DNA from: Escherichia coli
Lineage (GTDB): Bacteria > Pseudomonadota > Gammaproteobacteria > Enterobacterales > Enterobacteriaceae
NCBI RefSeq assembly: GCF_045037415.1
Contig: NZ_CP173438.1
Direction: 5' to 3' (one strand)
Length of the DNA: 64,000 nucleotides
A program made the position numbers and the translations under genes. Under the pieces are notes generated by a model, which was given only the letters and a program-made list of their open reading frames with translations, did not search any database and was not told the DNA's origin. Shown one piece after another: positions 55,991-56,103 of the stretch; within the stretch, counting starts at the first letter, position 1, and each line of letters starts with the position of its first letter.

Positions 55991-56103
55991 GATAATATTT
56001 TATCTTTTTATGGCTATGATAGCCATAATATTAGCATTTATTGGATTGAACGCACCTGCAAAGCGTTCAAGATTACGAAAGTGATGATATTTTATCTTTT
56101 TAT
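55991..56103. repeat. 21-bp direct repeat (gatRatattttatctttttat) in two copies 92 bp apart, bracketing the palindrome and a hairpin (ttgaacgc...gcgttcaa)
   Basis: Copies at ~55991-56011 and ~56083-56103 match at 20 of 21 positions. Confidence 0.5.
56010..56026. promoter_or_regulatory. Inverted repeat atggctat-g-atagccat upstream of the HTH gene; candidate autoregulatory operator
   Basis: 8-bp perfect inverted repeat 23-39 nt upstream of HTH start codon. Confidence 0.4.

Follow-up and report, generated by a model that had tools for sequence, protein, structure and literature searches.

Candidate multi-operator promoter region of a diverged hipBA-type toxin-antitoxin operon adjoining rplI in Escherichia coli

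In E. coli K-12 the antitoxin HipB binds cooperatively to four TATCCN8GGATA operators and represses the hipBA toxin-antitoxin (TA) operon; the gaps between these operators are 10, 21 and 10 bp, so that they form two pairs (PMC3376134 and PMC4150777, which summarise the operator work of Black 1994 and Schumacher 2009/2015). In Shewanella oneidensis, hipBA has four GTGTA(N)6TACAC operators spaced 34 bp apart, one of which is located inside hipB (PMC4150777). Here we describe an intergenic region upstream of a helix-turn-helix (HTH) gene of the XRE/HipB-like type in a 64-kb stretch of E. coli DNA (contig NZ_CP173438.1; hereafter, the window). The region is located between the rpsF-priB-rpsR-rplI operon and an accessory gene cluster, and it is followed directly by the HTH gene and then by a gene for a HipA-family kinase, as in K-12 hipBA. 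We found four operator-like sites, denoted O1 to O4, within the 141 bp from 55989 to 56129 (Table 1). We propose that this segment probably serves as promoter and operator for the autoregulation of a diverged hipBA-type TA operon, in which the cognate HTH protein would repress its own synthesis from the four sites.

The sites were found with a position weight matrix (PWM) that was built solely from the proximal sites of homologous loci other than the window. When the entire 64 kb was scanned, four matches fell within these 141 bp, and just 10 further matches reached at least 9 bits. The four can be read as two inverted pairs (O1 with O2 and O3 with O4), with 31 bp between the centres in each pair. 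O1 ends 2 nt ahead of the start codon of the HTH gene (minus strand, 55987-55985; read on the plus strand as CAT, 55985-55987). In a comparison with five other E. coli strains, neither O1 nor O2 varied.

An isolated PWM match, ATGCCATTATTCCATCA, is present at 50136-50152 on the plus strand and scores 20.4 bits, equal to O2. Some 5.8 kb from the module, it falls within a gene for acyl-CoA:acetate/3-ketoacid CoA-transferase that belongs to the same island, and it may be either a stray site or a chance match, of which roughly 0.1 would be expected in a window.

Similar sites stood out in nearly all of 85 homologous loci from gamma- and betaproteobacteria, including 4 plasmid loci and 80 genome loci, which represent Serratia, Erwinia, Pantoea, Atlantibacter, Azotobacter, Pseudomonas, Burkholderia, Achromobacter and other genera. 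When the locus sequences were aligned by anchoring at the ATG, a 16-17-bp pseudo-palindromic site with the family consensus gTGCTAaTATTnTGGC appeared as a conserved inverted pair. In 75 of the 85 loci the paired sites are 31 bp apart, and in 71 their start positions relative to the ATG are -49/-18 or -48/-17. The consensus of site 2 (agTGctAaTATT.TggC) agrees with that of site 1 read as its reverse complement (.gtGccA.TATTccttC), and the two sites therefore represent an inverted pair of one motif, which is itself a pseudo-palindrome, TGCnAnnATnnTnGCA. Averaged over 72 unique sequences, the information was 1.29 bits per site column, against 0.56 for spacer columns and 0.43 for those of the upstream flank. 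A HipA homologue was found downstream of the HTH gene in 72 of the 86 loci searched (the 85 homologous loci and the window).

Two further comparisons bear on the relation between the sites and the HTH gene. The first is a paralogous HTH gene (locus L003; protein 62% identical) in an E. coli integrative and conjugative element (ICE) at tRNA-Leu. Upstream of its ATG, the 21-bp sequence AGTGATAATATTTTATCTTTT, which contains O1, and the 17-bp sequence ATAGCCATAATATTAGC, which corresponds to O2, are 100% identical to those of the window, and the intervening 10 bp differ; O1 is also fully identical in Serratia. The second comes from divergent loci, in which both sites are altered jointly: locus L072 has GTAACTATTCTG in both sites and locus L073 has AAGAATTC in both. 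When recognition helices were compared with operators, only the HTH proteins of these two loci stood out, with TLRNVE in place of TLRSLE alongside their divergent operators, an anecdotal observation in a domain that is otherwise too conserved to inform.

The region resembles the K-12 hipBA promoter in having four pseudo-palindromic sites arranged as two pairs that overlap the promoter, and its predicted function, cooperative autorepression, is the same. Several features set it apart. Its motif, gTGCTAaTATTnTGGC, is not TATCCN8GGATA, and the K-12 consensus was not found in 55985-56140; the centres within a pair are 31 bp apart rather than 28 bp; the pairs are separated by a variable 67-155 bp rather than being adjacent; the paired sites are asymmetric and mutually inverted; the proximal site abuts the start codon; and a Shine-Dalgarno sequence is missing. 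The HTH protein, of 163 aa, is also larger than the 88-aa HipB of K-12. The S. oneidensis array is similar in having four 16-bp palindromic operators roughly three helical turns apart, one of them reaching the start of the antitoxin open reading frame (ORF), but its operators are evenly spaced rather than placed in two separated pairs, and their half-sites have another sequence. Binding in S. oneidensis was shown by a crystal structure, whereas the sites described here are predicted from sequence. The region thus appears to work like a HipB operator array but not to belong to the same operator family, and it would add one more case to the known multi-operator design of hipBA rather than introduce a new principle.

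That the cognate antitoxin binds to these sites and represses from them is supported indirectly by the fixed position of the sites, by their being inherited together with the HTH gene in different genera and by their joint change in L072 and L073. Under the proposed mechanism, HTH dimers bound to O1 and O2 would exclude RNA polymerase and so produce negative autoregulation; the proximal pair covers the sole promoter-like sequences. Because 31 bp is close to three helical turns, the paired sites are expected to lie on one face of the DNA. The distal pair (O4 and O3), 92 bp upstream, would be a diverged copy of the proximal module that contributes cooperativity, either through DNA looping or through bridging by the kinase as in K-12 HipBA, and it may also serve as a weak second promoter. 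In the window strain, in which hipA is broken, the HTH protein alone would act.

An initial annotation of this DNA had pointed to the repeats in this region. It described a 21-bp direct repeat, gataatattttatctttttat, at 55991-56011, which we indeed found again at 56083-56103 with a 92-bp offset and one mismatch (A55994/G56086); the repeat extends to 24 bp. It also described an inverted repeat, atggctat-g-atagccat, at 56010-56026, which grows to a perfect 10-1-10 palindrome, and a second hairpin formed by ttgaacgc (56046-56053) and gcgttcaa (56063-56070) around a 9-nt loop. To estimate chance levels, the 348-bp intergenic region was shuffled with its dinucleotide composition preserved. Direct repeats of at least 24 bp with at most one mismatch appeared in 0 of 300 shuffles, in which the longest was 16; perfect inverted repeats with arms of at least 10 appeared in 10 of 1000, and those with arms of at least 8 in 138 of 1000. 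The 24-bp repeat and the 10-1-10 palindrome therefore exceed chance, and the 8-bp-stem hairpin, which also has no T-run and is not terminator-like, is unremarkable by itself.

The initial annotation took the 8-1-8 inverted repeat as a plausible autoregulatory operator of the HTH gene. Its placing of the autoregulatory region very probably holds, but the choice of operator is not supported, since one arm of the palindrome falls in the poorly conserved spacer. Arm 56019-56028 mostly overlaps O2, so that the gene-proximal half of O2 forms one arm of the palindrome, and the other arm, 56008-56017, is within the spacer between O1 and O2, sharing its first part with the last 4 bp of repeat copy 1. 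The conserved palindromic sites are instead located inside the direct repeats (O1 and O3), together with two sites that had gone unnoticed (O2 and O4). Each repeat copy contains an inner 5-4-5 palindrome, GATAA-tatt-TTATC, with GATGA in the distal copy (O3).

One could still argue that the 10-1-10 palindrome is the HipB-type operator and that the direct repeats are passive duplicated pieces of promoter. In favour are its perfection and its rarity in shuffles, the palindromic nature of HipB operators (PMC3376134) and, at the corresponding position of an Erwinia locus (L012), a perfect palindrome of another sequence, TTATGGCCATAA. However, in the closest relatives (L003, L008, L009 and L013) the spacer arm is replaced by unrelated sequence while O1 is identical and O2 identical or nearly so (differing at 2 of 16 positions in L013). 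The information content of the spacer columns is low, the palindrome is centred on 56018, 5 bp away from the O1/O2 dyad at 56013, its sequence is not repeated at the distal module, and no PWM match of at least 9 bits was found in the spacer arm that would make it an extra operator. We consider this explanation very unlikely. The palindrome and the second hairpin are best regarded as lineage-specific spacer features and not as conserved operators, and the palindrome may have arisen through a template switch that copied the O2 half-site into the spacer.

The direct repeats themselves had been explained in two ways, as duplicated promoter elements or as a scar of the insertion of the module. The comparative data favour the first, as the distal repeat is homologous to the proximal promoter/operator module. 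In E. coli, O3 and O1 are alike at 16 of 17 positions and in 7 flanking bp, compared with 12 of 17 positions in Serratia, which suggests a recent duplication or gene conversion in E. coli. A scar, in the form of a target-site duplication or att-like repeat left by the module or a small element, would account for a long, nearly identical repeat in a strain-variable island. Yet in genomes without the module homology begins only at about 56335, at the rplI terminator, which marks the junction of island and core at least 230 bp away from the repeats; the repeats are just 92 bp apart, with nothing mobile encoded in the 68 bp between them. The arrangement of a proximal and a distal pair also recurs in other genera, in unrelated contexts and on plasmids as well as chromosomes. 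We therefore regard an insertion scar as extremely improbable.

The distal sites are widespread. A scan of positions -400 to -62 in 83 loci detected 139 sites, compared with 3.8 expected from mononucleotide shuffles, and at least one site was present in 67 loci, compared with 3.6 expected. In 58 of the 83 loci the distal sites form a plus/minus pair, again offset by 32 nt, that lies 67-155 bp further upstream than the proximal pair. Distal sites were found in 61 of 71 hipA-containing loci and in only 1 of 7 loci with a solitary HTH gene (Fisher p = 2e-4, phylogeny-uncorrected). This association would be in keeping with kinase-bridged higher-order complexes of the kind reported for K-12 HipBA (Schumacher 2015). 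Going beyond autorepression, it is conceivable, although we hold it doubtful, that the 31-bp pair is a platform for a kinase-bridged complex and that the distal pair is used only by the HTH-HipA complex, giving toxin-dependent (conditional) cooperativity through a 70-155-bp DNA loop; in the same scheme a leaderless antitoxin mRNA would fix the distance between operator and AUG, and occupancy of O1 would control both transcription start and translation competence.

The ICE copy (L003 4536-5024, E. coli GPEC709), whose element carries a MobH relaxase and an AbiE system, has no neighbouring hipA; it has the proximal O2/O1 pair only, and the distal pair is absent. Other solitary copies (L012, L053, L059, L062 and L067) are likewise without distal sites. 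L012, from E. rhapontici, also has no hipA, and across the 230 upstream nt compared it resembles the Erwinia persicina locus L010 minus the segment from O4 to O2, the flank of its single pair matching the flank upstream of the distal pair of L010. Because L012 looks like such a deletion, operator modules seem able to recombine as repeats.

Two positions for the promoter of the HTH gene fit the sequence. In the first, an extended -10-like element in O2, TGCTAATAT (TG at 56036-56035, hexamer 56033->56028), would start transcription near 56021, and O1 would then lie within a leader of about 34 nt. In the second, a -10 element within O1 would give a leaderless or near-leaderless mRNA; O1 overlaps the minus-strand hexamers TAAAAT (56002->55997) and AATATT (55999->55994), which end 9 nt and 6 nt before the ATG, respectively. 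We tentatively favour the -10 within O1, because the HTH start in the window has no Shine-Dalgarno sequence and the operator-to-ATG distance is fixed. The extended -10 in O2 is a plausible alternative, since the Pseudomonas and Azotobacter loci have AAGGA/AGGA at -16..-11.

The resemblance to a promoter raises another explanation, namely two tandem promoters (P1 at O2/O1 and P2 at O4/O3) whose conservation would reflect recognition by RNA polymerase of an extended -10 element (TGnTAnnAT) rather than by a repressor. The conserved TG-N-TA..AT core fits that consensus, and in Serratia and Pantoea the distal site matches as well as the proximal one; tandem promoters would also be compatible with operators at the same sites. 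Polymerase recognition is harder to reconcile with a motif that is present in both orientations in each pair at a fixed 31-bp spacing, with conservation that spans 16 bp including the distal GGC, with distal sites in either orientation, or with the parallel alteration of the two sites in L072 and L073. Furthermore, O4 has a G at the -11 position in the window (TGTTAT), and UTI89 is without the TG. Taken together, these observations make tandem promoters an unlikely explanation for the conservation.

It was also considered that the hairpins between the repeats form a structured 5' leader, transcribed from the distal module, that controls translation or stability of the HTH mRNA. The 95-nt segment folds as two hairpins, with z = -3.5 relative to shuffles. 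The inter-pair spacers of the relatives, however, have a mean z of -0.4, with 5 of 51 below -2; in E. coli the distal module has only a poor promoter-like element; and the E. coli copies are nearly identical, leaving no covariation to assess. An Rfam scan of 55800-56500 (E <= 1) gave only matches below the gathering score, at the rplI terminator. A conserved leader RNA structure was dropped as a candidate given the generally unstructured spacers of the relatives and the lack of an Rfam match, and a regulatory leader of this kind is highly improbable.

Several points weigh against autorepression from four operators. A consensus sigma-70 scan, which does not model extended -10 or leaderless starts, detected no canonical -35/-10 promoter on the minus strand, and our literature and database search retrieved no binding, footprint or transcription-start data on the family. 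The motif resembles an extended -10 element read both ways, so that its conservation could partly reflect contacts with RNA polymerase. O3 and O4 score below O1 and O2 and vary within E. coli (56097 T>C in O3 and 56128 A>G in O4 in UTI89-type strains), and constraint on the distal pair in the species may thus be weak. The association of the distal pair with hipA is based on 7 solitary loci only and is not corrected for phylogeny. The distances between pairs show no clear 10.5-bp phasing (Rayleigh test, periods 9-13; apparent peaks at 11.5-12 come from related Pseudomonas loci), which lends no support to a rigid looping geometry. Finally, the 10-1-10 palindrome is nominally unlikely by chance (1%) and is left unexplained by autorepression from O1-O4.

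If the proposed organization is correct, these sites define the likely operator motif and promoter layout of a HipA clade that has gone uncharacterised. The clade is found widely across Enterobacterales, Pseudomonas and Burkholderiales and occurs in roughly one in five complete E. coli genomes, namely B2-type uropathogenic (UPEC) and adherent-invasive (AIEC) strains. For binding work, the striking perfect palindrome would be the wrong target, and O1-O4 provide the exact candidate sites. The link between the distal pair and hipA makes toxin-dependent cooperativity open to test.

Table 1. Sites, repeats and genes in and around the intergenic region (positions in the window).
Feature	Position	Strand	Remarks
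O1, candidate operator (GTGATAATATTTTATCT; inner GATAA-N4-TTATC)	55989-56005	plus	19.5 bits; core of direct repeat copy 1
O2, candidate operator (ATGCTAATATTATGGCT on the minus strand)	56021-56037	minus	20.4 bits; inverted relative to O1, 31 bp centre-to-centre
O3, candidate operator (GTGATGATATTTTATCT)	56081-56097	plus	15.0 bits; 92 bp upstream of O1 in the same orientation; core of direct repeat copy 2
O4, degenerate candidate operator (GTGCTGTTATTTTATTG on the minus strand)	56113-56129	minus	14.3 bits; inverted partner of O3, 32-nt offset as for O2/O1
Direct repeat copy 1, 24 bp (AGTGATRATATTTTATCTTTTTAT)	55988-56011		O1 and neighbouring A/T tract
Direct repeat copy 2, 24 bp, 1 mismatch	56080-56103		O3 and neighbouring A/T tract
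Perfect 10-1-10 palindrome (TTATGGCTAT-G-ATAGCCATAA)	56008-56028		lineage-specific
Hairpin ttgaacgc-N9-gcgttcaa	56046-56070		in the O2-O3 spacer; lineage-specific
Perfect 16-bp A/T palindrome (TTTTTATATATAAAAA)	56097-56112		fills the O3-O4 spacer, centred on the distal-pair dyad; read from the sequence
HTH (XRE/HipB-like) gene, 163 aa, 492 bp	55496-55987	minus	Pfam HTH_31, 6.6e-11; presumed binder of O1-O4
hipA-2 kinase gene, frameshifted	54226-55493	minus	HipA_C, 8e-48; 'frameshifted' in the Prokaryotic Genome Annotation Pipeline (PGAP)
Terminator-like site of rplI	56341-56367		only such site found by the scan
rplI	56389-56838		adjoins the intergenic region of the module

Judged from its published description, the module corresponds to 'hipA-2/xre-3' of B2-type E. 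coli, which adjoins rplI. In AIEC strain NRG857c this system (TA28) is located between the rps genes of the ribosomal-protein operon and a fatty-acid metabolism cluster, hipA-2 is transcribed and induced by stress, and the system is reported as a pseudogene in CFT073 (PMC7232551); that study, unlike the present work, contains no promoter or operator analysis. It lists xre-3 (NRG857_21370) as a 294-bp gene with 'no domain identified', whereas RefSeq and conservation in the family favour a 492-bp gene starting at 55987. The conserved N-terminus (MxKKTAPL...) backs the 492-bp gene, and the older annotation apparently omits the HTH domain.

Repeats present without the adjacent genes would have counted against the initial annotation, but such cases did not appear among the matches listed: the intergenic region is carried by about 1050 of 5426 complete E. 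coli genomes, including CFT073, UTI89 and NC101, and the HTH gene is annotated under every match listed. The kinase gene is less stable. In the window a 1-bp deletion at gene position 505 (near 54989) creates a TAATG stop/start overlap and splits hipA-2 into ORFs of 168 and 253 aa, so that the window does not encode a functional kinase; the gene is unbroken (422 aa) in UTI89, SF-166 and 10035004-3, and hipA is intact in other genera as well. In CFT073 it carries a 1-bp insertion within a G-run at position 556 (L088 265-1534, compared with L089 266-1534 for UTI89). hipA-2 has thus been knocked out independently in two E. coli lineages, and the HTH gene is whole in all strains compared.

Comparisons of the two proteins point to a divergent branch of the Hip family. 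The nearest solved relative of the HTH protein is PDB 9u9g (153 aa; 'XRE family transcriptional regulator, HipB'; E 5e-31), with a match over residues 1-105 that covers the N-terminal MxKKTAPL arm and the HTH; no paper behind this entry was found in a literature search. The match of the HTH protein to the NCBIfam HipB model is below the cut-off of the model. Among solved-structure sequences, the kinase matched HipT alone, and weakly, with no match to K-12 HipA at E <= 1e-3; no Pfam model matched its N-terminal 180 aa; and, in an attempt to assign its clade, the accessions were not found in the supplements of the Hip tree paper of Gerdes 2021. On these comparisons, the module is a diverged hipBA-type clade. 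In the HTH protein, residues ~100-163 (55496-55690) comprise a poorly conserved linker of about 50 aa and a conserved C-terminal motif, S/A-LA-x-LLKP-x-KK; the protein is far longer than K-12 HipB, and this region may be a kinase-binding or degron tail.

An alternative cassette is found next to rplI in strain T16R (L002 3099-5943), in which a three-gene tripartite ATP-independent periplasmic (TRAP) transporter occupies the place of window positions ~52806-56335. Strains with the TRAP transporter are without the segment that carries the major facilitator superfamily (MFS) transporter and hipBA, and the same cluster of flavin adenine dinucleotide (FAD)-oxidoreductase and CoA-transferase genes lies upstream.

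The remaining observations concern the surroundings of the distal pair. O3, the TTTTTATATATAAAAA spacer and O4 together form a 63-bp imperfect palindrome (I1). O4 is flanked by a perfect 12-nt inverted repeat, ATAAAAACAATA at 56106-56117 and TATTGTTTTTAT at 56144-56155, with 26 nt between the arms. This repeat and a plus-strand promoter-like match at 56131-56158 are found in about 200 bp of AT-rich island DNA that extends from O4 to the rplI terminator and has no annotated feature. The start of the HTH coding sequence at 55969-55982 (the KKTAP codons; GTGCTGTTTTTTTA on the plus strand) is complementary at 13 of 14 positions to the O4 region at 56116-56129 (repeat I4), and across the family the N-terminal HTH codons read GTGC....T.T..T.GC on the opposite strand. 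The complementarity may be coincidental, or it may mark a weak fifth site within the ORF, as is the case in Shewanella.

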